Origin: Candidatus Saccharimonadota bacterium
Lineage (GTDB): Bacteria > Patescibacteriota > Microgenomatia > UBA1406 > GWC2-37-13
Assembly: GCA_001790095.1 (NCBI GenBank)
Contig: MGBH01000001.1
Location: 660,001-692,000 of the forward strand
Length of the DNA stretch: 32,000 nucleotides
Direction of reading: 5' to 3'
Below the pieces are notes generated by a model. The model ran no database searches, was not told the DNA's origin, and worked only from the letters and a program-made list of their open reading frames with translations. The position numbers and the translations under genes are program-made. The first letter of the stretch is position 1. Each line of letters begins with the position of its first letter. Below, in pieces: positions 12,464-31,990 of the stretch.

Positions 12464-13665
12464 TATCAACCGATTTTGCACCAAATGAATTAAGAGATGA
12501 CGCTTCAATAAGCCTTATAACTCTTTTTCAACCATGGCTGTGGAGACAAGGAAAAGAAATGGGTTTATGTATAGATATACTGCAATCCATGTTTCCAAGG
12601 ACAAAGATCTCTCTATTTCTATCAGGAAGAGCCTCACTTTATTTGTTGCTTAAAGCCCTTCACCTTTCACCTCATTCTACAGTTGCACTCGTTGGTTTTA
12701 CCTGCGAAGCGGTTGTTCTACCCATCCAAGCGCTCAATCTTAAACCTCTTTATATCGATATTGAAAAAGACATGTACTCCATGGATCTTAATGATTTAAA
12801 AAAGAAAATTTCAGATACAACCTCTGTCATAGTCCTGCAACATACCTTTGGCATTATACCTAAATATCGAGATGAGGTCTTAAAACTTGCTAAAGAAAGG
12901 AATATATATGTCATTGAAGACCTTGCTCATGGATTTGATCCATCGTTTTGGCAAAAGCAGGTCTTGAGTGATAGTCAAGCACTATTACTATCGTTTGGAC
13001 GATCCAAAGCTTTATCCTCAGTGTTCGGCGGAGCTGTGGTTACAAGTAACCATAGTGTTGCGTTGACCCTAGCCTCAATCTCTCAGTCTCTTGATTATCC
13101 GCATTTTTACATCATGATTAAGTTATTACTCTATAAACCTATTTCTTATATGATAAAGATTGCCTATAATATCCCTCTTTTGGGGAAGCTTATCCATAAA
13201 ATCTGTATCTCTACAGGGCTCATCATAGCCGAAATATCAAAGGAAGAAAAGGGGGGAACGTATAGTCCTTATCTTGAGAAAAAGTATCCTAATGCCTTGG
13301 CAAAACTACTCCTTCACCAATTAAATAAGTTTGATGAAGTGAGACAACAGCGTAAAATGATATCTGATTTGTATATCCAGTCATTTGGTGTTACTAACTT
13401 AACGCCGGAAGCGTTTCCTCGTTTTCCAATACTTATAAAAAATAGGCCTCACGTTCTTAAAGAATTTGCCAAACGGAATATATTTTTTGGAAGTTGGTAT
13501 TCGCAACCCGTTGCGCCGAAGGAATTGCTGCTTGAGAAGGTAGGATATATAATGGGATCCTGTCCTGTCGCAGAGCAAATTAATAAAGAAATAATAAATC
13601 TACCGACACTGATTACAGAAAAAGAGGCGGAGGGAATTGTTAGACAACTTAAAAAGTTTCAATGA
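12460..13665 (+). CDS. DegT/DnrJ/EryC1/StrS-like PLP-dependent aminotransferase (tentative)
   Basis: LSGRASLYLLLKAL, VIEDLAHGF and SFGRSKALSSVFGG (candidate PLP lysine) are present. An ATGA overlap links it to the upstream gene. It carries an unusual hydrophobic insertion around residues 210-250. Confidence 0.6.
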   Translation: MISTDFAPNELRDDASISLITLFQPWLWRQGKEMGLCIDILQSMFPRTKISLFLSGRASLYLLLKALHLSPHSTVALVGFTCEAVVLPIQALNLKPLYIDIEKDMYSMDLNDLKKKISDTTSVIVLQHTFGIIPKYRDEVLKLAKERNIYVIEDLAHGFDPSFWQKQVLSDSQALLLSFGRSKALSSVFGGAVVTSNHSVALTLASISQSLDYPHFYIMIKLLLYKPISYMIKIAYNIPLLGKLIHKICISTGLIIAEISKEEKGGTYSPYLEKKYPNALAKLLLHQLNKFDEVRQQRKMISDLYIQSFGVTNLTPEAFPRFPILIKNRPHVLKEFAKRNIFFGSWYSQPVAPKELLLEKVGYIMGSCPVAEQINKEIINLPTLITEKEAEGIVRQLKKFQ

Positions 13666-13748
13666 TCAATTGTCAATTCTCAATGATTTTTCAATATATT
13701 AATTATCAAACAATTAAAAATTGGAATTTGAAAATTGAAAATTTGTTA
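13666..13748. repeat. heptad-phased imperfect palindrome (unit TCAATNN / ATTGNNN)
   Basis: TCAAT occurs at 13666, 13673 and 13680. ATTG-type units occur at 13720, 13726, 13734 and 13741. The element fills the gap between the DegT-like and FemAB-like genes. Confidence 0.7.
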
Positions 13749-13753
13749 GAAAT

Positions 13754-14815
13754 ATGCACATAAAAGAAATCACAGATTATACCGTTTGGACCAATCATTT
13801 CAATCAATTCGATTCTCCTTCGTTCCTTCAATCTTGGGAATGGGGAGAACTACAGAAAAAATTAGGATATATAACACTGCGTTTTGGGATATACGACGAT
13901 GTCATTCCCGCGAAGGCGGGAATCCAGGCTACAAATAGTCTTATTGGAATAGCCCAAATAATCAAGATAAAAGCTAGGCGGGGAAACATGCTCTTTATAC
14001 CTCATGGTCCTATCTTTAAATCAACGCTTCACAGTACACAACTATTTAAGATATTAACTGTACTCAAAGATTACCTTGCAGACTGTGCCAAAAAGGAAGG
14101 ATACGCTTTTGTCCGGTTTGCACCCATTTGGGAAAATAAACCAGAGTATAGACAGATGTTTAAAGATCTTGGATGTAAAACCGCTCCAATCTATATGCAC
14201 TCTGAACGGGTATGGATACTTGATGTCACCAAGCCCGAAGAACAATTGCTTTCTGAAATGAGGAAGACTACACGGTACTCTATCAGAAAGGCTGAGAAGG
14301 AAGGTGTGGTCGTCAAAAAACGAGATGATGAGGAAGCTATCGATGAGTTTGTCCGATTATACAAAGAGACTGCAGATCGAGAAAACTTTACTCCGTTTTC
14401 CCCAAAGTATCTTTTGAATGAATTTAAAGCGTTTCATAAAACAGGTAGCTCGAGCTGGTTCTTTAGTTATGAAAAGGATGGCAGGCTCACAGCTGCCGCT
14501 CTTATCAACTATACACAATCAACTGCCTTTTATCATCAAGGAGCAACGCTCCATAGTAAGATCCCTACATCGTATATCTTGCAATGGGAATCTATAAAAG
14601 AAGCAAAGAGAAGGGGATGTAAATACTATAACTTCTGGGGGACCCTACAGATAGGAAGAACTCCCAAAAGTTGGGGTGGTTTGACTCTTTTTAAACAAGG
14701 ATTTGGTGGTTTCCAAAGGGATTATGTACCAACTCAAGACTATATAGTCAATTGGCCACGTTACCATGTCAATTTCCTGTATGAACAATATCTGAAATAC
14801 AAACGAGGAATCTGA
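13754..14815 (+). CDS. FemAB-family peptidoglycan interpeptide-bridge peptidyltransferase
   Basis: FLQSWEWGELQKKLGY, MRKTTRYSIRKAEKEGV and FYHQGAT..YILQWESIKEAKRRGCKYYNFWG are typical of the FemAB/FemX family. Confidence 0.8.
   Translation: MHIKEITDYTVWTNHFNQFDSPSFLQSWEWGELQKKLGYITLRFGIYDDVIPAKAGIQATNSLIGIAQIIKIKARRGNMLFIPHGPIFKSTLHSTQLFKILTVLKDYLADCAKKEGYAFVRFAPIWENKPEYRQMFKDLGCKTAPIYMHSERVWILDVTKPEEQLLSEMRKTTRYSIRKAEKEGVVVKKRDDEEAIDEFVRLYKETADRENFTPFSPKYLLNEFKAFHKTGSSSWFFSYEKDGRLTAAALINYTQSTAFYHQGATLHSKIPTSYILQWESIKEAKRRGCKYYNFWGTLQIGRTPKSWGGLTLFKQGFGGFQRDYVPTQDYIVNWPRYHVNFLYEQYLKYKRGI
13901..13927. repeat. GC-rich palindromic element inserted in frame in the FemAB-family gene
   Basis: GTCATTCCCGCGAAGGCGGGAATCCAG contains ATTCCCGC-GAAG-GCGGGAAT (13904-13923). 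It translates as VIPAKAGIQ on the + strand and LDSRLRGND on the - strand, and its composition is very different from the surrounding gene. Confidence 0.7.
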
Positions 14816-14825
14816 TTTACTATTC

Positions 14826-14834
14826 TGCTATAAT
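14826..14834 (+). promoter_or_regulatory. extended -10 promoter TGCTATAAT, leaderless configuration
   Basis: TGnTATAAT ends 7 nt before ATG 14842. Confidence 0.5.
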
Positions 14835-14841
14835 TTTTCAC

Positions 14842-15660
14842 ATGGATGTACAACAGATTCTGCAGAGTGCTGCCGCAAAAGGAGGGGAGTCGCTCCTCAC
14901 CTTTTTCCATAAAGAACTTACCCTTTCCAAAAAGACCTCTCATCAAAACCTGGTTTCCCAAGCTGATCTGGCAAGCCAGCAAGTGATTAAATCCGAGATA
15001 CTGTCATTTATGATAGATCGGGGAATAGATGAAAAAGAAATCGGATTTATTGGTGAGGAGAATCTGAATTCCCAAGGAAAACATCTTTTTATCATCGATC
15101 CCCTAGACGGCACTAATAATTTTGCCTCAGGTCATGATCATTTTGGCATATCAATCGCTTATGTCTTTGAAGGTGTACTTTCAGCTGGACTTATCTATCA
15201 ACCATTTACAAACACTTTCTATATTGGCGAACTTAGGAAAGGTGCTTTTAAAATAGGTCCTGATGGAGAAAAAAAAGAGATGAGGATCAAATATACGAAT
15301 TTGGAAAATACGTTGGTTGCCACATATCTTACTTCAAGTCAAGACGCACTTAACAAACTCATTCCTGTGATGTTGCGTCTCAATAAAGTGACAAGGGGCA
15401 TACGCATCCTTGGCTCTTTTGTACTGGATGCCGCATTGTTTTCCAATATGGTAAATAGCATCAATGTCCTCCTTCATGCTCATCCCTATTTGTGGGATAT
15501 TGCAGCCGCCAAACTCATCATAGAAGAATCAGGTGGAGTAATGACGGATTGGCAAGGAAACCCTATACAACTTCGTCTTGATGCCCCTCACATGAACTAT
15601 TCAATCCTTGCCTGCCATCCTGATAATCTTCAGGAGATCCTAAAAATAATCGCCGCATAA
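14842..15660 (+). CDS. inositol monophosphatase family protein (SuhB/IMPase-like)
   Basis: Motifs present: FIGEE, IDPLDGTNNF and WDIAAAKLIIEESGG. Confidence 0.85.
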   Translation: MDVQQILQSAAAKGGESLLTFFHKELTLSKKTSHQNLVSQADLASQQVIKSEILSFMIDRGIDEKEIGFIGEENLNSQGKHLFIIDPLDGTNNFASGHDHFGISIAYVFEGVLSAGLIYQPFTNTFYIGELRKGAFKIGPDGEKKEMRIKYTNLENTLVATYLTSSQDALNKLIPVMLRLNKVTRGIRILGSFVLDAALFSNMVNSINVLLHAHPYLWDIAAAKLIIEESGGVMTDWQGNPIQLRLDAPHMNYSILACHPDNLQEILKIIAA

Positions 15661-15693
15661 AAAAAGACCCGAGTCGTCACCCGGATCTTTTTT
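15659..15693. terminator. weak bidirectional terminator between convergent genes
   Basis: AAAAAAGA..CCG-loop-CGG..TCTTTTTT. An A-run and a T-run flank a short stem. A second small hairpin, ATTCGA-tttac-TCGAAT, follows. Confidence 0.4.
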
Positions 15694-15723
15694 ATTCGAT
15701 TTACTCGAATCAATTAACTTCAG

Positions 15724-16800
15724 TTATGGACATGTTGCGTCAATAAATAAAGTTGGGTAAGTATAACTCTTTGCAGAGTTACACCCACATCTCCATTTAT
15801 CTCCATAAGCATCTTCCGCTGTACAAGAACCAACCGGTAATTTAGTACCGTTAGTCAATGCGCATTGGTAATCAGGAAAATTCGCCTCAACACACGTCGC
15901 TGCTGGTTTGGTACAGTTTGTATTGTCTGAAACGCTTCCTGTCGTTGTTATATCACCTGTTGCATTTGTTTTACATCGAAATCCAGTGTTTGCACCACTT
16001 GATGTCAAAATACATTTATAGATAGTGCCACCAACATCTACATTTGCCCAGTGATATGGAGTTGATACATCTGTCACATTGCTTCCACCATACATACAAT
16101 TAATGACTGGTGTCGGCGCTGCACAAGATGCCTCATTCTCCCAAGTAGGATAGGAAAGTCCACGACTACAATTACATTGTTTCTTACCTTCTGGCGCACA
16201 GGCACCTATAGCATACTCTGTTCCATTGACACCTTCACATGTTCCTGTACAAGTAACAGCCTCTGCACAATCTCGATCACTAGAGGTCGCTCCTCTAATT
16301 GCATTACCTGAGATTGTATCAACAGTAAGTGAACATTTTATTCCTATGTTTTTTGGTGTTGCAGCTCCATCTGTTAGACATTTTTTTGTTACAGCTCCAA
16401 CTGTTACATCTGCCGTTTGATTAAATGTCTCTGCACCTGTACTATCAGTTTTATAGTAGATTTTTTCACCATAAGAACACCTTACAGTTGGTCTACATGT
16501 TGCATAGTCAGTGACTATTGTGCTTGTTACAGAGTCACATTTTCTACCAGTAAGTTCTGGTCTAGTCTTACTTTCAGTACCATCGGCCAATGTGTCAGTT
16601 GTTAACGCTCTTTTTTCACAACCAGATGTTGCGTCCCAATTGCCAGTACCTACGGTGCATGAATTTGTGCCTGCTTTTGTATTACTCGACAGATTTTGAC
16701 TGTTCATGTAATTGGCAAATAACACTACTCCAAGTAGAAGTACTGCCACTGCTGCGATGAAAGCGACACTCTTACTTATACATACTTTTTCGTTCTTCAT
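15724..16800 (-). CDS. secreted/anchored Cys-rich protein with two tandem roughly 125-aa modules
   Basis: N-terminal TM. I count 25 Cys, 24 of them after the TM. Two modules have 10 aligned Cys each (e.g. RCSYGEKIYY / NCMYGGSNVT and KQCNCSRGLSYPTW / WRCGCNSAKSYTYPT). Strong SD (GGAGAGGGGG). The gene is less AT-rich than its neighbours. Confidence 0.75.
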   Translation of the reverse strand: MKNEKVCISKSVAFIAAVAVLLLGVVLFANYMNSQNLSSNTKAGTNSCTVGTGNWDATSGCEKRALTTDTLADGTESKTRPELTGRKCDSVTSTIVTDYATCRPTVRCSYGEKIYYKTDSTGAETFNQTADVTVGAVTKKCLTDGAATPKNIGIKCSLTVDTISGNAIRGATSSDRDCAEAVTCTGTCEGVNGTEYAIGACAPEGKKQCNCSRGLSYPTWENEASCAAPTPVINCMYGGSNVTDVSTPYHWANVDVGGTIYKCILTSSGANTGFRCKTNATGDITTTGSVSDNTNCTKPAATCVEANFPDYQCALTNGTKLPVGSCTAEDAYGDKWRCGCNSAKSYTYPTLFIDATCP

Positions 16801-16959
16801 TTTGTGTCACCCCCTCTCCGTGAAGTAAAAATGATTAAAGGGTTCCCGCAATATAATAAGAAGTTATACATGTAATATAAATTTTTCATGAAAAACTAAT
16901 ACATTATTCATTTAATACTAATTTGAGGGGTGTGTCAAGAGGAAGTGAGACTATAATAA

Positions 16960-17009
16960 CAATATTCAATATTCAATTGTCAATTTTCATTCAATATCAA
17001 ATTATTCAG
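16960..17009. repeat. heptad-phased array (TTCAAT-type units), single arm
   Basis: CAATATTCAATATTCAATTGTCAATTTTCATTCAATATCAAATTATTCAG. It lies upstream of the Cys-rich gene and abuts the end of the extended four-helix-bundle frame. Confidence 0.55.
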
Positions 17010-17012
17010 TTC

Positions 17013-17399
17013 TCAAAAACCTCTCTTCTTACTACTTCTTATGATTGCAGAGAATATTAAGAGAAGTTCGTGCGTTTCTTTCCAATATAATCTTAGTTTG
17101 TCTCTTCGTTCATGATTTACTCTGGCGAGAAGTCTTCACCAATGCTGTGTTTCTTTTATTTCTTTTTTTGCAATACTTATCTTATGAACAAAGTCCTTTT
17201 TGCTCTCTGATTCAACCGCCTCACAATAATTTGCCCCTATTGACCCAGATGAACCAATTAATTGCTCAATAATACGCTTGTTAATGGAGTTGATTGAAAT
17301 TGATTTCACTTCGTCAATTATGTGCTCTGCCAACAGAGCAGTACGCTCTTCAAGATTGTAGTTCTTTGATAAATGATCCCTTGATGCTTGATTGATCAC
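17013..17399 (-). pseudogene. four-helix-bundle protein (23S rRNA IVS protein / Avd family) interrupted by one in-frame TGA
   Basis: Listed ORF 17136..17399 ends ...KKEIKETQHW at a TGA (17136-17138). The same frame continues RLLARVNHERRDKLRLYWKETHELLLIFSAIIRSSKKRGF to a stop at 17013-17015. The QLIGSSGSIGANYCEA..SKKDFVHKISIAKKE.KET..W motif matches the family, where Leu usually follows the W. Confidence 0.65.
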
Positions 17400-17610
17400 T
17401 AAAAAATGATAATTGAACCTTGGTTAACTTACAACGGACTCCATGCTACAAAAATTACAATTCAGATCTTTGTAAAGATGTAAATTTATAGTATTCTCCG
17501 CATACAAATCGGGAATAGGGAAGAGAAAAAGACAAAAAGACTGCCATGATGGGCCAAACACTGAAAAAAGCCATTTTTTGATGGAGTTCCAGGACCGGGG
17601 AGGAAAGTGA

Positions 17611-17695
17611 ACATAAATTGGGAATTAATTAATTTATTATTGCAAAAATAAAAAATAATTAATCATTAATTATCGATTAATTGAAATAAAAAATA
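17611..17695. repeat. extremely AT-rich tract with TTAATNN-type phased units
   Basis: GGAATTAATTAATTTATTATTGCAAAAATAAAAAATAATTAATCATTAATTATCGATTAATTGAAATAAAAAAT. It is partly self-complementary. Confidence 0.5.
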
Positions 17696-17725
17696 TACTA
17701 GTACTCCCCTTGAGTGAGGCTAATC

Positions 17726-17755
17726 AACGTCGTAAAAGATACAATTTACGACGTT
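17726..17755. other. perfect 11-bp hairpin in the ORF-free tract
   Basis: AACGTCGTAAA-agatacaa-TTTACGACGTT. No U-run follows on either strand. Confidence 0.6.
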
Positions 17756-18200
17756 ATACATCTTTATTCTCTGCGGGTTTGGATCCCATTTTTTGCATGA
17801 TGACCCATCGGTAGCAGTTTGATGATATATGGTGCAAAAAGAGAAGCAGCCACACTCACTCTTTTCATAACTACCTCTCTTTAATTGTCAGATCTCCGAT
17901 CACAGTCTCTTTAATGAATACAATAATTTATGTTCTTGCACCTCTCTTGACCTCTTCTCTTACCATCACATGATGCGATTAAATTTAGATTATCATTACT
18001 TGCTAAACATGCATTTTCGAGGCTAAAAAAGTACACTACAGATGATATACCCTGGGCAGTATGTCATCAGTTTAGATTATAAAGACAGTCCATTCTATTG
18101 TTTTCATGCCTATCCACACGCAGATACACAGCTTAAGAGATGAGTAATTTAGATTGCAATATCAATCTATCTTGTAATTTTTGAAGCTAAATACATGTAG

Positions 18201-18209
18201 TTATCCACA
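18201..18209 (+). promoter_or_regulatory. DnaA-box-like 9-mer TTATCCACA (plus 8/9 copy CTATCCACA at 18110-18118)
   Basis: An exact match to the canonical DnaA box and a second near-match lie in the same orientation 91 bp apart, inside the ORF-free tract. A single exact hit could be chance in 32 kb. Confidence 0.25.
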
Positions 18210-18447
18210 TATCACATACATCTACTTACGGAGTGTAGTGACGGTCTGAAATATTGATCCTAAGGCTAGAAACGTATTAACCCAAGCTTGAGTTGTTCAA
18301 ATTCTGTATTAAACTGAATACGAACGTACTAAATAGTCCTATAGTTTATTTTATTATGAATACTATAGGGTATTTTATTATAGGATATTATTCTTCACGT
18401 CCGTACTCCTCTCTTCCCTACCCTGAGAGTCGTAGCCTTTTTTTACC

Positions 18448-19248
18448 TTACCAATTAATCGTAAGAATTATTACAATTAATACAAATCCTAGAACAAATA
18501 AATACTCACGCACTGTCTCTTTAAATAAACGCTGATCAAGGTAAAGATATGTCAACCCTCCTACGCTGTAGAATACGCATGAGATAAGTAAGGCCATGAT
18601 CGATGTCTGTAAGGGTATAAATGAGGCTATCAGACTGGTTTGGAGAATGATAAATCCAACCAGTAACCCAAATTGAATAATCTGTTTCTCCAAGTAAAGC
18701 TCAAGCTTGATGCTCCAAAACAAGTGTGTTGCTATCACGGTCCCCAACAAGAAAAGAAATAGGACACTAAGTAGAAAATTAAGCTTTAAAGACAGGATAA
18801 GATTGGAAAACAAAAACATAACAAGAGATTGATAAAAATAGTTTACTGAGAAGGCGGCACGATAGAGCTGAAGGCTCTTCTCTACTCCAACATTAAAGAT
18901 ATTGGATACAAGAAACATGGCATATATAGATATGGCATAAAAAGTTACAAAAGGTATACGAGTTAACCATCTAACCGGAAAAAGGAAATAAAAGAGATAA
19001 AATGATATCGTCACCAATACCGGCATAAGAAATAAGGTAGCCCATTCTATCTTTTCAATACCTTCAAGTATGGAAAAAAAGGTGCATAGATATGAAACAA
19101 TGATAAAAACCGGGATAAAAAACCAGGCTTTATCAAAGAAAAAAAAGGTAGAGATAAGAAGTATGGTCGTTAGGATCAATGTCGATATGATAAAACGAAC
19201 TCTTTTTTCTATACGACCCATTATTGAGTATATGACCTGATAATTCAT
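18448..19248 (-). CDS. polytopic membrane protein, unknown function
   Basis: 266 aa with roughly 8 hydrophobic helices. Its start overlaps the yebC stop (ATGA), suggesting co-transcription. Confidence 0.65.
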   Translation of the reverse strand: MNYQVIYSIMGRIEKRVRFIISTLILTTILLISTFFFFDKAWFFIPVFIIVSYLCTFFSILEGIEKIEWATLFLMPVLVTISFYLFYFLFPVRWLTRIPFVTFYAISIYAMFLVSNIFNVGVEKSLQLYRAAFSVNYFYQSLVMFLFSNLILSLKLNFLLSVLFLFLLGTVIATHLFWSIKLELYLEKQIIQFGLLVGFIILQTSLIASFIPLQTSIMALLISCVFYSVGGLTYLYLDQRLFKETVREYLFVLGFVLIVIILTINW

Positions 19249-19982
19249 ATATGAAATGAGTCTGGAATATCAATATTTGAAAATACCCCATGGACATCAT
19301 CAAGCCCTTCAACAGCTTCCATAACGCCAAGGACCTGGCTTATCTGGTCATGGGTAGATACGCTAATATTTAAATTTGGTTTATAAATAACCTCGCTAAG
19401 CTTTGGACGGACCTTTTCAAGGTGTTCTTTAATCTTTCCAAAAAGCTCAAAGGGTATATATACATAATAGATGGATTCGCTCTTGTCCATATCAATTGCA
19501 TTTAGACTTTGAGCAAATGTGAAGATGTCCTCCTCTGTATTCTCTCCCTTATCAAACTCAACCATACCACATTTAGTAAAAAGATATGAGACTGAGCCCT
19601 GAGTTCCTAATTTTCCACCATGCTGTTCAATACAATTTTTTATCTCATTCACTGTCCTATTTGGGTTGTCGGTCGTAGCATGGATCATAAGAGCAACCCC
19701 ATGTGGAGCAAACCCCTCATACATAACCTCACGTAATACATTTTTGTTATCTTTGTTTGCTTTTTCAATTGCCCTTTGGATGTTTTCTTTGGGCATATTC
19801 AAAGACTTCGCTTTATCTATGATAAGCCTCAGCTTGAAGTTATGGGAAGGATCCGGGATATTGCCCCCTTCGTGGACAGCAAGAGTAATAAGTCTTGATA
19901 GCTTGGAGAAAACCACCCCCTTTACTTTATCGTTTGCTTCCTTTTTGCGCTTTATATTTGCCCATTTTGAATGACCGGACAT
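19245..19982 (-). CDS. yebC: YebC/PmpR-family DNA-binding regulator
   Basis: MSGHSKWANIKRKKEANDKVKG..FSKLSR.ITLAVHEGGNIPDPSHNFKLR..IDKAKSLNMPKENIQRAI. Confidence 0.9.
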   Translation of the reverse strand: MSGHSKWANIKRKKEANDKVKGVVFSKLSRLITLAVHEGGNIPDPSHNFKLRLIIDKAKSLNMPKENIQRAIEKANKDNKNVLREVMYEGFAPHGVALMIHATTDNPNRTVNEIKNCIEQHGGKLGTQGSVSYLFTKCGMVEFDKGENTEEDIFTFAQSLNAIDMDKSESIYYVYIPFELFGKIKEHLEKVRPKLSEVIYKPNLNISVSTHDQISQVLGVMEAVEGLDDVHGVFSNIDIPDSFHI

Positions 19983-19998
19983 ATGAGTCCAATTATAC

Positions 19999-20026
19999 TT
20001 GACTTTACTGAAAAATCATATATATT
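19999..20026 (+). promoter_or_regulatory. sigma70-like promoter TTGACT-16-TATATT
   Basis: TTGACT at 19999-20004 and TATATT at 20021-20026. The ATG at 20037 is 10 nt downstream of the -10 box. Confidence 0.45.
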
Positions 20027-20036
20027 GTATAAACGT

Positions 20037-20840
20037 ATGGATGATATCGAACTGCTCGAACAGCACGCAATTGACGCTGCGATGAACCTTCAATGGCAAA
20101 ATGCAATAGAGCTCAACAACCAGATTATTAAACTCAATAAAGATAATGAGTCAGCACATCTTCGCCTCGGCTTTATATATCTTCAATTAAAAGATGTAAC
20201 CAAGGCAAAGAGATATTATTCTAAAGCCTTAAAAATCCAACCCCGCAACAGCGTAGCATTACAAAATCTGGAAAGAATCAAGGTCCTTGAAAAAGCAAAA
20301 ACACAAAAGTCAGGTGATGCTCAAGTTTCTTTTGCAGCTGATCTGTTTATAGAAGCCATAGGAAAAACAAAAACGGTAGCACTTGCAAATCTTGGACAGA
20401 AAAACGTACTTGCCAGACTGACCATAGGTCAACCCGTTTGTCTTAAAATCAAAAAACGGCGCGTTGAGGTCCGATCCCTCGCTGGTGACTATATCGGCAA
20501 TCTTCCTGATGACTTGTCAAAAAGACTTATCTTTTTTTTAAAAGCAAAAAGTTCATATTTTACCTTTATCAGAGAATCTACTTTTACCAAGGTAATTGTA
20601 TTTATCAAGGAGGAAAAAAAAGGAAAAGGCGTCACCAAACAGATTTCCTTCCCCCTCAACATTCAAACAAAGATCATTGAGACTCCCCCGAATCAAAGTG
20701 GTGAAGAAAAGGAAGAAGAAACAGAAGACCAAGAAGAACACATTGATGCTTGGGAAAAAATGGCACAAGAACAGCCCAATACCGATGATAAAGAAATGCT
20801 TCTTGATATTCAGCGAGATGATTTGGATGAGGAAGAGTAA
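20037..20840 (+). CDS. TPR-repeat protein with acidic C-terminal tail
   Basis: TPR-like AIELNNQIIKLNKDNESAHLRLGFIYLQLKDVTKAKRYYSKALKIQPRN and a Glu/Asp-rich tail. The listed ORF starts at 19971 inside yebC. ATG 20037 (MDDIELLEQ) fits the promoter. Confidence 0.65.
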   Translation: MDDIELLEQHAIDAAMNLQWQNAIELNNQIIKLNKDNESAHLRLGFIYLQLKDVTKAKRYYSKALKIQPRNSVALQNLERIKVLEKAKTQKSGDAQVSFAADLFIEAIGKTKTVALANLGQKNVLARLTIGQPVCLKIKKRRVEVRSLAGDYIGNLPDDLSKRLIFFLKAKSSYFTFIRESTFTKVIVFIKEEKKGKGVTKQISFPLNIQTKIIETPPNQSGEEKEEETEDQEEHIDAWEKMAQEQPNTDDKEMLLDIQRDDLDEEE

Positions 20841-20992
20841 TGTATGACTTTGTCTCTAAAAAAGACAATGCTTCCTTTTATTTTTCGCATCGAAATAAGC
20901 TTAGTAATTTCTTTTGGTACTCCCATATCTTTCATCGAGACAAACGCAAGTATAAAAGAAAGAACCAAAATGATGAAAAAAATGATTAGCAT
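20810..20992 (-). CDS. possible small single-pass membrane protein
   Basis: 60-aa ORF with an N-terminal TM (LIIFFIILVLSFILAFV). Its 3' end overlaps the TPR gene by 31 nt. There is no other support. Confidence 0.3.
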   Translation of the reverse strand: MLIIFFIILVLSFILAFVSMKDMGVPKEITKLISMRKIKGSIVFFRDKVIHYSSSSKSSR

Positions 20993-20997
20993 AAAAG

Positions 20998-21095
20998 TAT
21001 CTCAAATGGCAAATGTCAAATATACATGTTAAATCGTAAATCTTGTTTAGATTTAATATTTGCAATGTAGATTTGAATTTTGAGATTTGACATTA
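20998..21095. repeat. heptad-phased imperfect palindrome (unit CAAATNN / ATTTGNN)
   Basis: CAAAT occurs at 21003, 21010 and 21017; TAAATC at 21030 and 21037; ATTTG at 21058, 21071 and 21085. The centre is TAAATC-ttgttta-GATTTA. Confidence 0.7.
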
Positions 21096-22022
21096 TTACA
21101 ATATCTCCCATTCCTTTTCCGCTATCCCCAACTGTATAATTATATCAGAACTTTCAGTTCGGCCATGACTTAGCTTGCACGTAAAAAAAGCCGCCATATC
21201 AATTGCGCTTTGGGAAAAACGATCCCCCTGTTCAATGATCTTACATGATCGTTCAGTCCCCTCTTTTGTATTTTCAGAGAGATCCACAACTCGTATACCA
21301 TCGCCTTCGATAATCTTTGAAATAAGGAGAGCCGTATTATAACTTCTGTGATAGATTATTTGAACAGTCTTTTGTTCTTTTCGGTATATACGATTATAGA
21401 GAAACCCTTGGTATTTTTTTGCAAAGTCCTTGTCCTGAAAAAACTCCTCCTCTACCCCTATATAGCTTTTATACTCTATCTTCTCAAATTGCCTCTTTTG
21501 TTTGCCTACAAACTTCAGAAAAATGAATATTCGGTCAAAAATGTTACTATTTGATGGAGAAAAAAAAATATCACCAAATGAAGGAAAACCAAACGATGTC
21601 TCATCAAGCTCCTCTTTCCCGTAATAGATCTCTTGACTACTACGATAGTAGTACTTATCTACGGTTGAAGCAATCGTTGCCGAAAATGCTTTTCTTATCA
21701 AATCGCTTTTTTTTTCAAGAACTATCATTTTGCCCAAAGCTCCAACACGATAGCTTCCATATCCACCGGGTACTTTCACCTTTACGTCGGGATAAAATGA
21801 AATAAAATAGTGAACTCCATCATATTTACCGAGTGAATAGAATATGGTATTTTTTCCATAATAGACGACGTTTATTCTGTCTTTTTTTATAAAAAACAAT
21901 GACGCAGAGAGTTGCTTAAAAAAAATAAACACCATAACACAACTTAAAATAAAAATTAATACATAAAGAAAGATTCTTGAAGATTTGATATTTGAGATTT
22001 GAGATTTGAGCTTTCTTCTCAT
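21096..22022 (-). CDS. LCP-like / LytR_C-domain envelope protein (tentative)
   Basis: N-terminal TM. The C-terminal part (VQIIYHRSYNTALLISKIIEGDGIRVVDL...SDIIIQLG) resembles a LytR_C domain. An ATGA overlap links it to the upstream antiporter gene. Confidence 0.45.
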   Translation of the reverse strand: MRRKLKSQISNIKSSRIFLYVLIFILSCVMVFIFFKQLSASLFFIKKDRINVVYYGKNTIFYSLGKYDGVHYFISFYPDVKVKVPGGYGSYRVGALGKMIVLEKKSDLIRKAFSATIASTVDKYYYRSSQEIYYGKEELDETSFGFPSFGDIFFSPSNSNIFDRIFIFLKFVGKQKRQFEKIEYKSYIGVEEEFFQDKDFAKKYQGFLYNRIYRKEQKTVQIIYHRSYNTALLISKIIEGDGIRVVDLSENTKEGTERSCKIIEQGDRFSQSAIDMAAFFTCKLSHGRTESSDIIIQLGIAEKEWEIL

Positions 22023-23746
22023 ATCCCCTCCTGTTCTAATTTGAAATAATGAAGTTTTTCAATAATCTCCTCCTTGGGGACCCGTTTGAGAAGAAGAAGT
22101 TTTTTGATGATGGAAAGAGACGCCTCAAACTCCGGCTGAACCACTATTCTGACTCCCATATCTTTCATGCGCTTGTGGTCTTTTTTCCTATGTACCCGTC
22201 CAATAATCAATATGGATTTATTAAGTTTTCTTGCATTCAGAATGATTGTCTCTTGAGAAAATCTGTCTGGAAGCGCTGTCACTATAGCTACAGCGCTCTC
22301 TGTCTCAGCATAGTCAAGGATGTCCATGTCGGTTGGATCTCCATAAATTATATTAATCCCCTCCCGCTTTGCCTTTTCAACCGTCCTAAAATTGTAATCA
22401 ATTGCTATAAAGGGAATATTCGAGAGCATAAGAGCCCTACCCACATAGGAACCAATCCTGCCATAACCACATAAAATCACATGGTTTTTAATCTCAAGAG
22501 TATCGATTGGAGACTGATTTCTGTCTAGCCGATGCTTAATATATGTATGGAGAAACGGTATGTATTGGTTTATGAGTGCTCGAATGAATCGATATGCATT
22601 CTCTTTGCCATTTATAAGAAATGGTGTAACAAGCAAGCTCAACATGACAGCCGTAATGACGAAAAGATATTCCTCCCTTGTAAACACTTTATTGGCATAA
22701 GCTACAGACATGAGGATAAAAGCATCTTCATCAATCTGAAACAGAAATAAAGAAAGATAAAAAGCAAGCTTTGAATGAAATCTCATGAAAAGAAAGATCA
22801 TAAGAATTACTATGCCCTTTACCACCATCACCAAAACTCCAAATAAGATAATTTGAGGTAGTAGAAAAAAAACAGTCCCGATTTTAATATTGGTTCCAAT
22901 AAAAATAAAAAAAATGACCGAGAGAAGATCTCGAAGGGGACGAACCTGAGAAAAAATATGATAGTGTTCAAGGGTCTGAGAAACAAGGATACCTGCAACA
23001 AATATACTAACAAGAACCGGGATGTGAAAAAGCGTTGAGATATATGCAATGACGAAAATCGTCAATATAATAAAAAGGTTGAGGAGTTCACGAGAAGTTT
23101 TTGCAATCTTATTGAATACAAATGGAGCGATCCTGTTGCCAAAATAATAAGCAAACCACAGTATGCAACCTGAAGTAATCATGTCAACAAGGATTTTCCA
23201 GGAAATCTCAATAAGTGAAACGTTATTGGACGTAATAGATGTAAAAATGATTACAAAAGGGATAAAAGCTAGGTCTTGAAACATCAAAATACCCATCGCA
23301 AGTTCTCCATGAAACGACCCCTCCTCTCCCCTATCTTGTATGATCTTGGCAACAAGAGCGGTAGAAGAAGAAGACAGAGCAATACCGATAAGAAATGATT
23401 GGAGAGGGGAAAATCCAAAAAAAAGGCTTAAGATACATAGGGCAACAATAGATATAATTATTTGGAGGAATCCTCCTAAAACAATGAATTTTTTCAGAGC
23501 TATCATCTGATCAAACTGTATCTCAAGTCCGAGTGTAAACATGAGGAAAACAATACCGAAGTAGGCAAAATTATTTATGATCTCACGTGAAATAAAACCG
23601 TCAAAGAAGTTACTAAGTACTATCCCTCCTAACATATAACCGATAATGGGTGAAATTCTATTTTTTTTCAACAAAAGTGCAAATACAAACGGTATGAGAA
23701 GAAATAGAGAAAAGTTAAAAAAAAATGACGAAGGAATATCACTCAT
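22019..23746 (-). CDS. CPA2-family monovalent cation:proton antiporter (Kef-type) with C-terminal RCK/TrkA-N domain
   Basis: About 12 TM helices followed by a Rossmann motif, HVILCGYGRIGSYVGRAL. Confidence 0.8.
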   Translation of the reverse strand: MSDIPSSFFFNFSLFLLIPFVFALLLKKNRISPIIGYMLGGIVLSNFFDGFISREIINNFAYFGIVFLMFTLGLEIQFDQMIALKKFIVLGGFLQIIISIVALCILSLFFGFSPLQSFLIGIALSSSSTALVAKIIQDRGEEGSFHGELAMGILMFQDLAFIPFVIIFTSITSNNVSLIEISWKILVDMITSGCILWFAYYFGNRIAPFVFNKIAKTSRELLNLFIILTIFVIAYISTLFHIPVLVSIFVAGILVSQTLEHYHIFSQVRPLRDLLSVIFFIFIGTNIKIGTVFFLLPQIILFGVLVMVVKGIVILMIFLFMRFHSKLAFYLSLFLFQIDEDAFILMSVAYANKVFTREEYLFVITAVMLSLLVTPFLINGKENAYRFIRALINQYIPFLHTYIKHRLDRNQSPIDTLEIKNHVILCGYGRIGSYVGRALMLSNIPFIAIDYNFRTVEKAKREGINIIYGDPTDMDILDYAETESAVAIVTALPDRFSQETIILNARKLNKSILIIGRVHRKKDHKRMKDMGVRIVVQPEFEASLSIIKKLLLLKRVPKEEIIEKLHYFKLEQEGI

Positions 23747-23856
23747 AGTATGAGTATAGCAAGAAGTTAGTATAAAGTATTAAGTAGAAAGTTGCATACG
23801 GTGTCTATCGCCTCAATACTTACTACTTACTACTTGCTACTTTCTACTATTACTTA
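23747..23856. repeat. heptad-phased imperfect palindrome (unit AGTANNN / TACTNNN)
   Basis: AGTA/AGTT occurs at 23769, 23776, 23783 and 23790. TACT occurs at 23817, 23824, 23831, 23838 and 23845. The non-repetitive centre is TGCATACGGTGTCTATCGCCTC. Confidence 0.75.
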
Positions 23857-24219
23857 TTTGTGCATTTTTTTTTCGCACGCGATGCAAAATCGTGCCTCAG
23901 GCACCAATTCCATGCGCACAAGAGGGATTACCTCATTACACTTTTCGCATACACCATATCTACCTTTCTGTATGCGTGTGGTTGCAACCTTTAAATCTTG
24001 AAGTCTTGTTTGAAGGTCTTTTATCTCAGCCTCAACAGTCTCATGCCCCACCTGCTCTCTCACGTCGGTATCAATCGCAGCGTTATCCGATGCATGGTCA
24101 GGATCAGAAAAGGGATCGTCTTTCTTCAATTGTTCAATTTGAAGAATTATTTTTTTTTGCTCCTCTTCTATCTTTTTTTTTTGCTTTACTATGAATGCTT
24201 TTGAAACTCCTTTTGACAT
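23854..24219 (-). CDS. DksA/TraR-family C4 zinc-finger protein
   Basis: C-terminal YGVCEKCNEVIP...ARFCIACEKK (CxxC-17-CxxC) after a coiled-coil N-terminal part. Confidence 0.8.
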   Translation of the reverse strand: MSKGVSKAFIVKQKKKIEEEQKKIILQIEQLKKDDPFSDPDHASDNAAIDTDVREQVGHETVEAEIKDLQTRLQDLKVATTRIQKGRYGVCEKCNEVIPLVRMELVPEARFCIACEKKMHK

Positions 24220-25006
24220 ATTGAATGGTTAAATTTTTAAAATCTTTCACTCTTCCTAATATAAGGCCTCTGAAATAATACACAAAATAAAAACTGAATG
24301 TCAAGAGCAAGATGATAGAAATCATCTTGTTAAAACTATAATTTATGAAGTATAAATGATATTGCTTGATATTGTCAAACAGAAAATATATCAATCCCTG
24401 GCCCCACAATAGAAAATATAGTGTAAAACCTTTTTTTAACCTTTCTTTTCGTATCTCAAATAATAACCGATAAGCAATCAGGGTTAAAATAAAAAAAAGT
24501 ATACTTTCATATAAAGGAGTGATATTTCTCATACCGTCCATGTTTGCGTACTTAACAGACAGAATAAACTTTGTCTTCGTCCCAACTTCAAGACCCGAAA
24601 AAAAACTACCGAGTTTCCCAATAGCAAGAGCTAAAAATGCAGGCGGAACAAAATAATCGATTATCTCGGTAAACTTTATTTTTTTGACATAGGTCCACAA
24701 CAAGAGACTTATGATTATGCCCGCATACATACCATAAAGTGAAAATCCCGGATATCCGTTAACCAAAACAATTTTAAGTATATTGAACCCAAATTCGCTG
24801 AAATGCAAAAACACATATATTAACCGCCCAAATAATAATCCTCCAAGTAAGCTATTAAAGAATGCATCAAACATATCTTCTTCTTTAAATGAACTTAAAC
24901 GTATGAGTTTCCAAAGGAGAAAACTAGACCAGAAAAAAGCTAGTACCACAAATACACCCATGGTATATATTTTTATGAATTTTAGATCTAGTAGTACAGG
25001 CAACAT
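24134..25006 (-). CDS. lgt: prolipoprotein diacylglyceryl transferase (Lgt)-like
   Basis: Polytopic protein with GGLLFGRLIYV, AIGKLGSFFSGLEVGTKT (compare GR.GNF.N.E..G) and NITPLYESILFFIL (compare HP.QLYE). Confidence 0.6.
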   Translation of the reverse strand: MLPVLLDLKFIKIYTMGVFVVLAFFWSSFLLWKLIRLSSFKEEDMFDAFFNSLLGGLLFGRLIYVFLHFSEFGFNILKIVLVNGYPGFSLYGMYAGIIISLLLWTYVKKIKFTEIIDYFVPPAFLALAIGKLGSFFSGLEVGTKTKFILSVKYANMDGMRNITPLYESILFFILTLIAYRLLFEIRKERLKKGFTLYFLLWGQGLIYFLFDNIKQYHLYFINYSFNKMISIILLLTFSFYFVYYFRGLILGRVKDFKNLTIQYVKRSFKSIHSKAKKKDRRGAKKNNSSN

Positions 25007-25010
25007 AAAT

Positions 25011-25125
25011 ATATGTTAAATCGCAAATATCAAATGGCAAATCTACATATTACATCTCAAATATATAAAGATCTCATATTTGAGATGTAGATTTGAACTT
25101 TGCGATTTGATATTTGAGATAGATC
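25011..25125. repeat. heptad-phased imperfect palindrome (unit CAAATNN / ATTTGNN), related to 20998-21095
   Basis: CAAAT occurs at 25024, 25031 and 25038; TACAT at 25044 and 25051; ATTTG at 25078, 25091, 25105 and 25112. The right arm 25084-25115 matches 21064-21095 at 27 of 32 positions. Confidence 0.75.
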
Positions 25126-25150
25126 TATAGTTTAGTATAATTTACCCATT

Positions 25151-25729
25151 ATGAAAAAACAACCCTTACGAGTGGGTTTTGATCTTGATGGTGTCCTTTT
25201 ATACAATCCTATTCGCATCGCAAGACCAATCGTTTCTTTTGTTAAAATCTTTTTTTTGAAAAAGAAAAGGCTTCGATTTTACTACCCGAAAACAAGACTT
25301 GAAAAAGAACTTTGGCGACTGGTACATAAATCAAGTATTTATCTTGCTCCCGGAATCGATGACATAAGACATCTCGTTAAAGAAAAAAAGATTGTAGCAT
25401 ACATCGTAACAGCCCGTTATAGTTTCTTAGGAAAAGAGCTAATGGACTGGGTAAAAAAACAAAAACTTGACTTAGTTTTTTCTGAAATTCACTTCAATAA
25501 AAATGATGAACAACCACATGAATTCAAGGAAAAAATGATCAACACATTAAAGCTCGATTTGTTTGTTGAGGATAATTTTGACATAGTAAAACACACTAAG
25601 AAAAAGACCAAAGCCTCAATCGTCTGGATCTATAATATATTTGACCGGGGAATCCAATACCCATACAAATTTCCTTATCTTAAAAAAGCTGTCGAGCATA
25701 TAAAACGGGAAATTTCAAAACACAAATAA
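25151..25729 (+). CDS. HAD-superfamily hydrolase (phosphatase-like)
   Basis: FDLDGVL (DxDG motif I), VTAR (motif II) and a later K...EDN. TATAAT at 25136-25141 lies 9 nt before the ATG. Confidence 0.6.
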   Translation: MKKQPLRVGFDLDGVLLYNPIRIARPIVSFVKIFFLKKKRLRFYYPKTRLEKELWRLVHKSSIYLAPGIDDIRHLVKEKKIVAYIVTARYSFLGKELMDWVKKQKLDLVFSEIHFNKNDEQPHEFKEKMINTLKLDLFVEDNFDIVKHTKKKTKASIVWIYNIFDRGIQYPYKFPYLKKAVEHIKREISKHK

Positions 25730-25730
25730 C

Positions 25731-25815
25731 AAGTTCCAAACAAATCTCAAATTTCAAGCATCAAATGTTTTGAATATTGGAATTTGTTTGTGGTTTGTTA
25801 TTTGTAATTTGATCG
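25731..25815. repeat. heptad-phased imperfect palindrome (unit CAAANNN / TTTGNNN)
   Basis: CAAA/CAAG occurs at 25741, 25748, 25755 and 25762. TTTG ends at 25790, 25797, 25804 and 25811. Confidence 0.7.
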
Positions 25816-25820
25816 ATACT

Positions 25821-31940: not shown

Positions 31941-31990
31941 AATATAAAAAGTATAAAGTATCTAGTATTAAGTATTTTGTATCTTCGAAT
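31941..31990. repeat. heptad-phased array (AGTATNN units), single arm at window edge
   Basis: The array reads AAGTATA AAGTATC TAGTATT AAGTATT TTGTATC. Any partner arm would lie outside the window. Confidence 0.5.

Follow-up and report, generated by a model that had tools for sequence, protein, structure and literature searches.

Heptanucleotide arrays and foldback palindromes between the genes of a Roizmanbacteria-like genome: probable repeat DNA of a bacterial lineage

What are the palindromes, phased in steps of seven nucleotides, that fill spacers between genes in a small bacterial genome, and do they serve the genes beside them? The question arises from a 32,000-nt stretch of contig MGBH01000001.1 (positions 660,001 to 692,000), here called the window, in which the original prediction had described at least seven tracts of one design, with a left arm of repeated 7-nt units, a short centre and a right arm of the reverse-complement unit. 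We found that the tracts have the character of selfish or neutral repeat DNA that enters the spacers between genes and disappears from them again, rather than that of conserved regulatory switches. The account that we hold to be probable combines heptanucleotide arrays built by replication slippage with dispersed foldback elements, which resemble miniature transposable elements with inverted repeats (MITEs), repetitive extragenic palindromes (REPs) and Rickettsia palindromic elements (RPEs) and are tolerated at gene boundaries. They would be repeat DNA and not dedicated regulatory sites, and their effects on expression are probably secondary.

The window's sequence is that of contig MGBF01000001.1 (assembly GCA_001790045.1), and two further assemblies of the same population match it. 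The record of its Kef protein names Candidatus Roizmanbacteria bacterium RIFOXYB2_FULL_38_10, of the Microgenomates group in the Candidate Phyla Radiation (CPR). The relatives' sample comprises 80 loci centred on YebC homologues, taken from genomes that represent their species, and three around Kef homologues, labelled L001 upward; it amounts to about 1.2 Mb, or 1.25 Mb with the window included.

Seven-nucleotide periodicity in the window and in its relatives

We scanned the window for self-matches at a lag of seven in 28-nt sliding segments, with a looser (≥64%) and a stricter (≥71%) threshold and composition-preserving block shuffles as the null. The looser threshold yielded 12 clusters versus about 1.3 in shuffles, with 1 to 5 clusters at each other lag from 2 to 15, and the stricter one yielded 7 clusters versus 0.06 expected. 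Independently, Tandem Repeats Finder (TRF) returned ten period-7 arrays (13666, 13712, 16960, 21003, 21069, 21981, 23769, 23817, 25078 and 31949). The period-7 tracts are real, well above the shuffled expectation, and confined to 13.6-32 kb of the window. The TACT positions quoted earlier (23817, 23824, 23831, 23838 and 23845) are exact, two arrays (21981-22014 and 31948-31976) had been overlooked, and it remains correct that neither coding nor helical phasing accounts for a period of seven.

The same preference extends across the lineage. A survey of maximal self-match segments at lags 3 to 15, covering the window and the relatives (1.25 Mb), found 95 segments at lag 7, 70 at lag 14 and at most 13 at every other lag. 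Strong arrays occur at 8.8 per 100 kb in Roizmanbacteria-like loci and at 7.5 per 100 kb in other Microgenomates loci; at least one is present in 38 of the 78 Microgenomates loci, versus none in the five loci labelled Chloroflexota, Bacilli or Bacteroidales (non-CPR; 94 kb). Non-coding DNA carries 3.2 arrays per 10 kb and coding DNA 0.57, a 5.5-fold difference in density. Convergent, tandem and divergent junctions carry arrays in 5.2%, 5.6% and 6.6% of cases, and the median spacer measures 162 nt with an array versus 24 nt without one. A reverse-complement partner lies within 120 nt of 21 of the 95 arrays, versus 6 and 3 in two composition-matched controls. Individual loci depart from the average: L007, a syntenic Roizmanbacteria-like relative with 51% G+C, has zero heptad arrays in 20.7 kb, and L075 has a perfect (GCTATCA)8 array at the extreme end of its contig (1-66). 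Such arrays may break short-read assemblies.

The unit varies by locus, as the original prediction had it, with 56 distinct units among 96 arrays, and relatives repeat the design with yet other units (AGAAGNN/NNCTTCT, AAAGTTN, AGCTNNN and CTAAACC). The structure that had been proposed within the unit, five fixed positions followed by two free ones, does not hold up. Mismatches fall evenly over the seven columns (dispersion 4.74 versus a null of 4.74), and the pair of columns that varies most is adjacent in 34 of 98 arrays, as by chance; on this ground we rejected a fixed core with two free positions.

The tracts are capable of forming hairpins or cruciforms, and their arms can pair in several registers 7 nt apart. 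We quantified this capacity by single-strand folding, expressed as z against shuffles, and by arm-against-arm DNA alignment relative to a genomic null. Inverted arms are upheld by arm alignment in five or six tracts, exceeding 95-99% of the null at 13650-13748, 23757-23839, 25726-25801, 17620-17708 and 21011-21080; the design is not uniform, with strong folding only at 20998-21095 and 25011-25125. The first of these, element A, is a CAAATNN ... NNATTTG palindrome between the stop codon of a LytR-like gene and a conserved small open reading frame (ORF), and folds at -16.7 kcal/mol (20995-21098; z = -5.1). The second, element B, has the same units in the divergent region between lgt and a HAD gene, and folds at -25.9 kcal/mol (25008-25128; z = -7.5), with 42 of 48 positions paired (25020-25120).

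The other palindromes, to which, as to A and B, no strand is assigned, fold less well. Element K (23747-23856), an AGTANNN ... TACTNNN palindrome between the stop codon of a DksA-type gene and the conserved TGCTATACT box of the Kef gene, contains TRF arrays at 23769-23792 and 23817-23856 and folds moderately (23745-23858; z = -2.6). Element C (25731-25815) is a degenerate CAAA-type ... TTTG-type palindrome with a lag-7 cluster at 25770-25820, arms that pair at 27 of 37 positions and a marginal fold (25728-25818; z = -1.7). Element S1 (13659-13748) consists of TCAATNN units (13659-13684), an AT-rich centre and AATTGNN/ATTTGAA units (13712-13743), with TRF period 7 at 13666-13684 and 13712-13743; its arms pair at 36 of 46 positions, beyond 99% of the null, and its fold (13660-13752) does not exceed shuffles (z = +0.5). 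Element T (17611-17695), nearly pure A+T with TTAATNN units and a lag-7 cluster at 17636-17683, is a weak palindrome whose arms pair at 32 of 42 positions, beyond only 95% of the null, and whose fold lies within shuffles (17608-17698; z = -0.8). On the plus strand, a single-arm array of CAATATT/CAATTGT units (16960-17009; TRF period 7, 4.3 copies; lag-7 segment score 14) lies about 160 nt upstream of a gene for a Cys-rich secreted protein; no inverted partner was found for it (fold z = -0.25). Array Z (31948-31976, plus strand), four AAGTATN units (TRF, 4 copies), adjoins the 5′ end of the last minus-strand ORF and is cut by the end of the window; its units resemble those of K (local score 34).

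Turnover at matching junctions and a dispersed palindrome

The gene order GT1-HAD-Lgt-DksA-Kef-LytR-like-small ORF-TPR-YebC is retained in about 18 Roizmanbacteria loci, and orthologous junctions are therefore comparable. Elements S1, A, K, B and C are missing at the matching junctions of the nearest relatives. The DksA-Kef spacer of L004, L006, L007 and L026 is 28-35 nt long, has no heptads and includes the conserved TGCTATACT box; the window has about 85 nt extra, the AGTA/TACT palindrome, between the stop codon and this box. At the place of the window's 98-nt palindrome, the stop codon of the LytR-like gene overlaps or adjoins the start of the small ORF in L004, L006 and L007, and different palindromes, of CTAATTN and CTAAANN units, occupy this junction in L026 and L027. 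The divergent lgt/HAD spacer is empty in L004, L014, L022 and L007, holds three ATAAAGT units in L006, and contains unrelated heptad palindromes in L010, L012, L016 and L025. S1 occupies the whole spacer between DegT and FemAB genes that abut or overlap in L006 and L007. Element C fills a HAD-GT1 spacer that measures 4-40 nt in L007, L014, L016, L017 and L022, and the nearest relatives have GT1 and HAD directly adjoining. Because the nearest relatives have empty sites and others have unrelated palindromes at matching junctions, the heptad architecture is a property of the lineage, repeatedly re-created and not inherited at a locus. The idea of a conserved architecture consequently survives for the lineage and fails for the locus, where the more distant relatives carry independently acquired elements.

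Element C also touches on annotation. A mechanical ORF list places the start of the GT1 glycosyltransferase at a TTG within it (25770), and homology favours an ATG at 25818; TTTG-type units hold TTG codons, which create false upstream starts in several loci.

Arrays also change in length by whole units. Between L004 and L006, which are 82% identical in nucleotide sequence, the differences include a 110-nt heptad element, a 26-nt (ATAAAGT)3 array, and 28-nt and 14-nt indels inside arrays; in the window, element B has seven units on the left and six on the right. Over shorter distances, no length variation exists among three independent assemblies (L001-L003) that are identical to the window over 12-20 kb including most elements, and the strains L088 and L089 differ by 10 single-nucleotide polymorphisms (SNPs) and no gaps in 18.6 kb, although consensus assemblies could hide minority variants. 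The nearest Kef homologue is 83% identical, and assemblies sharing the same Kef protein are identical or differ by SNPs only. Since near-identical assemblies show no length change, the slippage rate is not high.

Some of the palindromes belong together. Elements A (20995-21098) and B (25008-25128) align end to end with a score of 85, versus 31±6 (maximum 60) when the units of B are shuffled. A search pattern covering all four arms of A and B, ATGTAKATTTGNNNTTTGNNATTTG, was run on metagenome and viral contigs; it matched at least 113 metagenome contigs, and carriage by phages received no match in 2.9 million viral contigs. Among the matches listed, about half of the distinct metagenome matches have a matching left arm, and 25 full palindromes could be extracted, next to unrelated genes and with unit order and centre in common. 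Sixteen sequences, A and B included, give a consensus of about 116 nt (mean column identity 62%) in which the variant units keep their order and the centre is TTAAAAG-like. Judged by these alignments, the CAAAT/ATTTG palindrome is a dispersed multi-copy family that includes A and B.

Metagenome copies are mostly asymmetric (CCACAAC on the left versus ATGTAGA on the right), an asymmetry that the window copies lack and whose relation to the direction of transcription (9 v 3 in tandem contexts) is not significant. TAAT...ATTA ends are frequent in the family and may represent either a TA duplication or simply part of the inverted repeat; no clean target-site duplication was seen at the 110-nt insertion of L004 or at element K. 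The arm pattern also matched G+C-rich contigs (L107, L130 and L141, 63-65% G+C; L097 and L104, 53-60% G+C), in which other heptads (TTCTAAC, TGTTCCC) come after ATTTGTC or ATTTGAN units. These matches indicate that mixed heptad arrays are not restricted to A+T-rich CPR genomes.

The original prediction had placed all copies at gene starts or operon junctions, which is incomplete. Array D (21981-22014, minus strand), four CAAATCT units (TRF, 4.9 copies), lies within the first 15 codons of the LytR-like gene (MRRKLKSQISNIKSS), and the orthologues of L004, L006 and L008 bear other heptads there. Rough gene calls put 54 of the 95 strong arrays inside ORFs, where many are genuine, and relatives have in-frame arrays within conserved genes. 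An RluA-type pseudouridine synthase has inserts at one loop in five genomes (L047, L056, L059, L063 and L065) and none in L077; those of L056 and L059 are full A-rich/T-rich palindromes, translated in frame. YebC contains (AGAGTCA)4 in L077 and CAAATCT units in L074, and arrays also occur within TGT, dihydroorotase and FemAB genes. T-rich arms within genes have TTTGGA-type units, and TGA is thus avoided.

Two other kinds of hairpin accompany the heptads. At 13905-13937 of the window, the FemAB gene contains a perfect G+C-rich hairpin (GTCATTCCCGCGAAGGCGGGAATCCAGGC) in frame, translated as VIPAKAGIQAT; these 11 residues are missing in the orthologues of seven relatives, and L006 has two copies, as VIPAEAGIQ. 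The hairpin belongs to a second class of palindromes inserted in frame, unrelated to the first. L004 and L006 are further separated by 25-45-nt G+C-rich hairpins of the form GTAGRGACRG-loop-CYGTCYCTAC (L004 146-181, 316-360 and 2256-2280; L006 1590-1621), several of them inside ORFs with lengths divisible by 3, which look like another small hairpin repeat family in Roizmanbacteria.

Repeat DNA weighed against dedicated function

If the tracts are repeat DNA, short A+T-rich heptanucleotides would be amplified and shrunk in 7-nt steps, as replication slippage would give, and the resulting arrays would then decay by random point mutation. Some arrays would be foldback palindromes, made of an array, a short centre and a reverse-complement array, and the CAAAT/ATTTG palindrome would land at new sites in the manner of a MITE, a REP or a Rickettsia palindromic element. 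The surviving copies would be the least harmful ones, located in stop-to-start spacers, upstream of -10 boxes close to the ATG, or, within coding regions, in surface loops of proteins, where they insert in frame and free of stop codons. We infer that slippage does the amplifying, that transposition or template switching does the spreading and makes the palindromes, and that the elements are nearly neutral.

Several points weigh against this account. No transposase or RAYT turned up in the window, which is 32 kb of a 1.2-Mb genome and in which no search aimed at transposases was made; there is no clear target-site duplication, only the recurrent TAAT...ATTA end, and no recent near-identical pair of copies. 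Consequently, we infer mobility rather than demonstrate it. Of 42 palindromes, 31 have an A-rich left arm and a T-rich right arm and 11 the reverse, and this polarity, together with the tight start-codon spacing (+7) of the TTTG family, could reflect selection for function. Family members also face gene starts on 35 of 53 sides and gene ends on 18 (among the matches listed). The arms are about 82% complementary even though orthologous elements differ in unit sequence, so that something maintains palindromy, whether selection, arm-to-arm conversion or youth. The step of seven itself is left unexplained by slippage and foldback; the sole proposal that we found for it is a polymerase-footprint idea attributed to Mrazek et al. 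2007 (PMC4679880).

The polarity and the spacing point to an alternative that we regard as unlikely, namely that the palindromes are intercistronic RNA hairpins. The stop codon, which the 5′ arm follows at 0-3 nt, and the ATG, about 7 nt past the 3′ arm, would meet at the base of the stem and serve termination-reinitiation coupling, RNase III processing or 3′-end protection in operons of once-overlapping genes. In the TTTG/CAAA family, among the matches listed, an A-rich arm lies within 15 nt after the stop codon in 33 of 229 cases (peak 0-3 nt) and a T-rich arm before the ATG in 31 of 230 (peak +7), versus 5 and 5 in the opposite orientations. In addition, A and S1 replace overlapping or abutting stop/start junctions, and A and B fold strongly. 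However, the sense-strand polarity of single arrays is present only in this pattern-biased set and absent from unbiased loci. Given that absence and a median spacer of 24 nt, the stop/ATG geometry mostly follows, trivially, from inserting an A-left/T-right palindrome. Divergent and convergent spacers are occupied equally. The stems of the 42 palindromes, in which 82% of positions pair, contain 50 G·T and 45 A·C mismatches on the sense strand, beside 166 of transversion type; the balance of the first two leaves no RNA-specific pairing signal, and RNAalifold found no common register across the 16 family members. On these two results we rejected an RNA hairpin under selection. Rfam gave no match at the gathering score for the window and 20 family loci, and by E-value only weak matches to plant miRNA precursors.

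Somewhat more doubtful is a wider version, in which Microgenomates have domesticated the palindrome of about 116 nt as a module between genes, a reinitiation hairpin as RNA and a supply of -35 elements as DNA, with its period of 7 selected. If so, stop and ATG would be joined at the base of the stem and ribosomes would reinitiate across a 100-nt insert, -10 boxes close to the ATG would have outward TTGACA-like hexamers available to them every 7 bp, and the heptad period would have been selected because both jobs tolerate shifts in register. Within the repeat-DNA account, the CAAAT/ATTTG family may still have a secondary role in coupling or promoter supply.

Taken alone, the DNA half of this idea is improbable. 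The palindromes would act as promoter cassettes, whose outward ATTTGAC/ATTTGAG units form tandem TTGACA/TTGAGA -35 hexamers every 7 nt and give the -10 boxes on either side a -35 or UP-like sequence, with tolerance of shifts in spacing. Element B provides two matches, by pattern only: TTGAGA-16-TATAAT (25114-25141, plus strand; 11/12 of the consensus), 9 nt before the HAD ATG, and TTGCCA-16-TAACAT (25013-25040, minus strand), 6 nt before the lgt ATG, where the -35-like hexamers are the final unit of the right arm and a unit of the left arm, respectively. Metagenome copies with an ATG 21-31 nt away have a TATAAT-like box 6-9 nt before it, and by eye 7 of 10 of these have a TTGNNN unit 16-18 nt upstream, versus 43% expected; the excess of gene-start sides given above and the -10 boxes retained near the ATG at Roizmanbacteria junctions agree with such a role. 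Against it, most units of the lineage (AGTANNN, AGAAGNN, AGCTNNN, CTAAANN) do not resemble a -35 element, the commonest spacing, with the ATG 7 nt past the array, is too short for a -10 box, and the gene that element A faces presents its 3′ end. The window has as many promoter-like matches as expected from shuffles (68 v 72.6).

The -10 boxes are a feature of their own. A TATAAT or TATACT box, often TGn-extended, lies 6-9 nt before the ATG of many genes that have no Shine-Dalgarno sequence (window 23720-23746 and 25126-25153; junctions of L004, L006, L007 and L026), which suggests that leaderless mRNAs are common. Other genes, such as the LytR-like one, have a strong AGGAGG.

A protein that reads the arrays is very improbable. 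Such operator- or centromere-like arrays would bind one protein unit per 7 bp, the candidates being an omega-like ribbon-helix-helix protein or, on RNA, a protein of the cold-shock or S1 type. Omega of pSM19035 is a ribbon-helix-helix protein whose contiguous 7-bp units, direct and inverted, lie upstream of genes and share one conserved core, and the period and the mixture of direct and inverted units fit operators of this type. CspB binds heptamer repeats with one protein per unit (PMC4679880), and arrays next to start codons are also seen in Beggiatoa and Nostoc (PMC4679880; bioRxiv 10.1101/2022.06.06.494920). On the other side stand the diversity of units, several of them in this one window, which have no conserved core, the gain and loss of sites among close relatives, and the copies within coding regions.

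Least probable of all are the register-tolerant terminators, insulators or slippage-driven phase-variation switches of the original prediction: despite long hairpins, a T-rich 3′ arm sometimes followed by TTTTATT, and indels between species in multiples of 7 nt, the elements have no G+C stem with a T run, none is among the 17 terminator-like sites of a pattern scan, convergent junctions show no excess, the elements lie inside operons and in divergent spacers and several stand between cistrons whose counterparts in relatives overlap, near-identical assemblies and strains do not vary in length, and a canonical-looking G+C stem with a T run is already present at 15661-15700. That sequence, an A-run, G+C stem and T-run between two convergent genes, for inositol monophosphatase and the Cys-rich protein, was not listed by the scan; judged by eye, it resembles a normal intrinsic terminator that works in both directions, and the organism accordingly seems to use intrinsic terminators as well.

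Two neighbouring features lie outside the heptad arrays. A hairpin, AACGTCGTAAAAGATACAATTTACGACGTT, at 17727-17773 of the window (within the ORF-free 17700-18447) recurs in over 30 Microgenomates loci at nucleotide identities of 77-100%; it stands at about 12.2 kb in those YebC-centred loci that are uncut by a contig end, downstream of the TM266 gene, has no Rfam match, and could be an undescribed small RNA or binding site. A PF05635 gene (23S rRNA intervening-sequence protein family; 17136-17399) lies near the gene for the Cys-rich secreted protein (15724-16800) and a long ORF-free stretch. The PF05635 family includes accessory proteins of diversity-generating retroelements.

Relation to known repeats

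Microgenomates and other CPR bacteria have very small, packed genomes that are usually thought to be poor in repeats, yet about 5-7% of the junctions surveyed here carry heptad insertions, as do loops of core enzymes (YebC, pseudouridine synthase). The practical effects are spacers that swell from about 24 to about 160 nt, spurious TTG starts, odd low-complexity peptide inserts and possibly broken assemblies. We found no paper describing heptamer repeats in CPR or Microgenomates bacteria. A new phylum is thereby added to an old unsolved question, the dominance of 7-nt units in long bacterial simple repeats, and since the same junctions have gained heptads independently many times, comparison can put this question to the test.

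Long simple sequence repeats (LSSRs) of heptanucleotides include the short tandemly repeated repetitive (STRR) sequences of cyanobacteria, GGGAATC of Xanthomonas (70-75 inverted pairs per genome) and TAACTGA of Beggiatoaceae; they are mostly intergenic, lineage-restricted, often by start codons and of unknown function, and some are convergent inverted pairs whose type is kept while their length varies (PMC4692102, PMC4679880, bioRxiv 10.1101/2022.06.06.494920). The arrays described here are likewise tandem 7-nt repeats in excess over other lengths, enriched in non-coding DNA, restricted to a lineage and variable by whole units. They differ in having many A+T-rich units and degenerate copies where LSSRs and STRRs have one to three dominant, perfect units, in their lack of G-quadruplex potential, in forming full palindromes with a conserved unit order as a dispersed family, and in having in-frame copies in conserved genes.

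The palindromes resemble MITEs, REPs and their REPIN combinations, and foldback elements in being short, non-coding, multi-copy and intergenic, with filled and empty sites among relatives and a recognisable sequence family. Unlike MITEs and REPs, they have no identified partner transposase or RAYT (none was sought) and no unambiguous target-site duplication, and their arms are internally periodic at 7 nt. Internally periodic arms are typical of eukaryotic foldback elements and not of bacterial REPs or MITEs. Rickettsia palindromic elements, reportedly described by Ogata and colleagues in 2000, are said to occur between genes and in frame within protein genes, translated as extra surface peptides. 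The repeats of the window's lineage are similarly palindromic, intergenic and in frame in conserved genes, and are absent from some orthologues (RluA, YebC); they have no sequence relation to RPEs, which measure 100-150 bp and lack a heptad substructure, and many of the coding copies here are single arrays. The operators of omega share the contiguous 7-bp units, direct and inverted, and are unlike these arrays, which have no shared core, differ in unit from site to site and turn over fast. On balance, the arrays fit best as repeats of the same kind as the cyanobacterial STRR, Xanthomonas GGGAATC and Beggiatoaceae TAACTGA sequences, with the addition of a dispersal like that of REPs and MITEs and of in-frame copies like those of RPEs.

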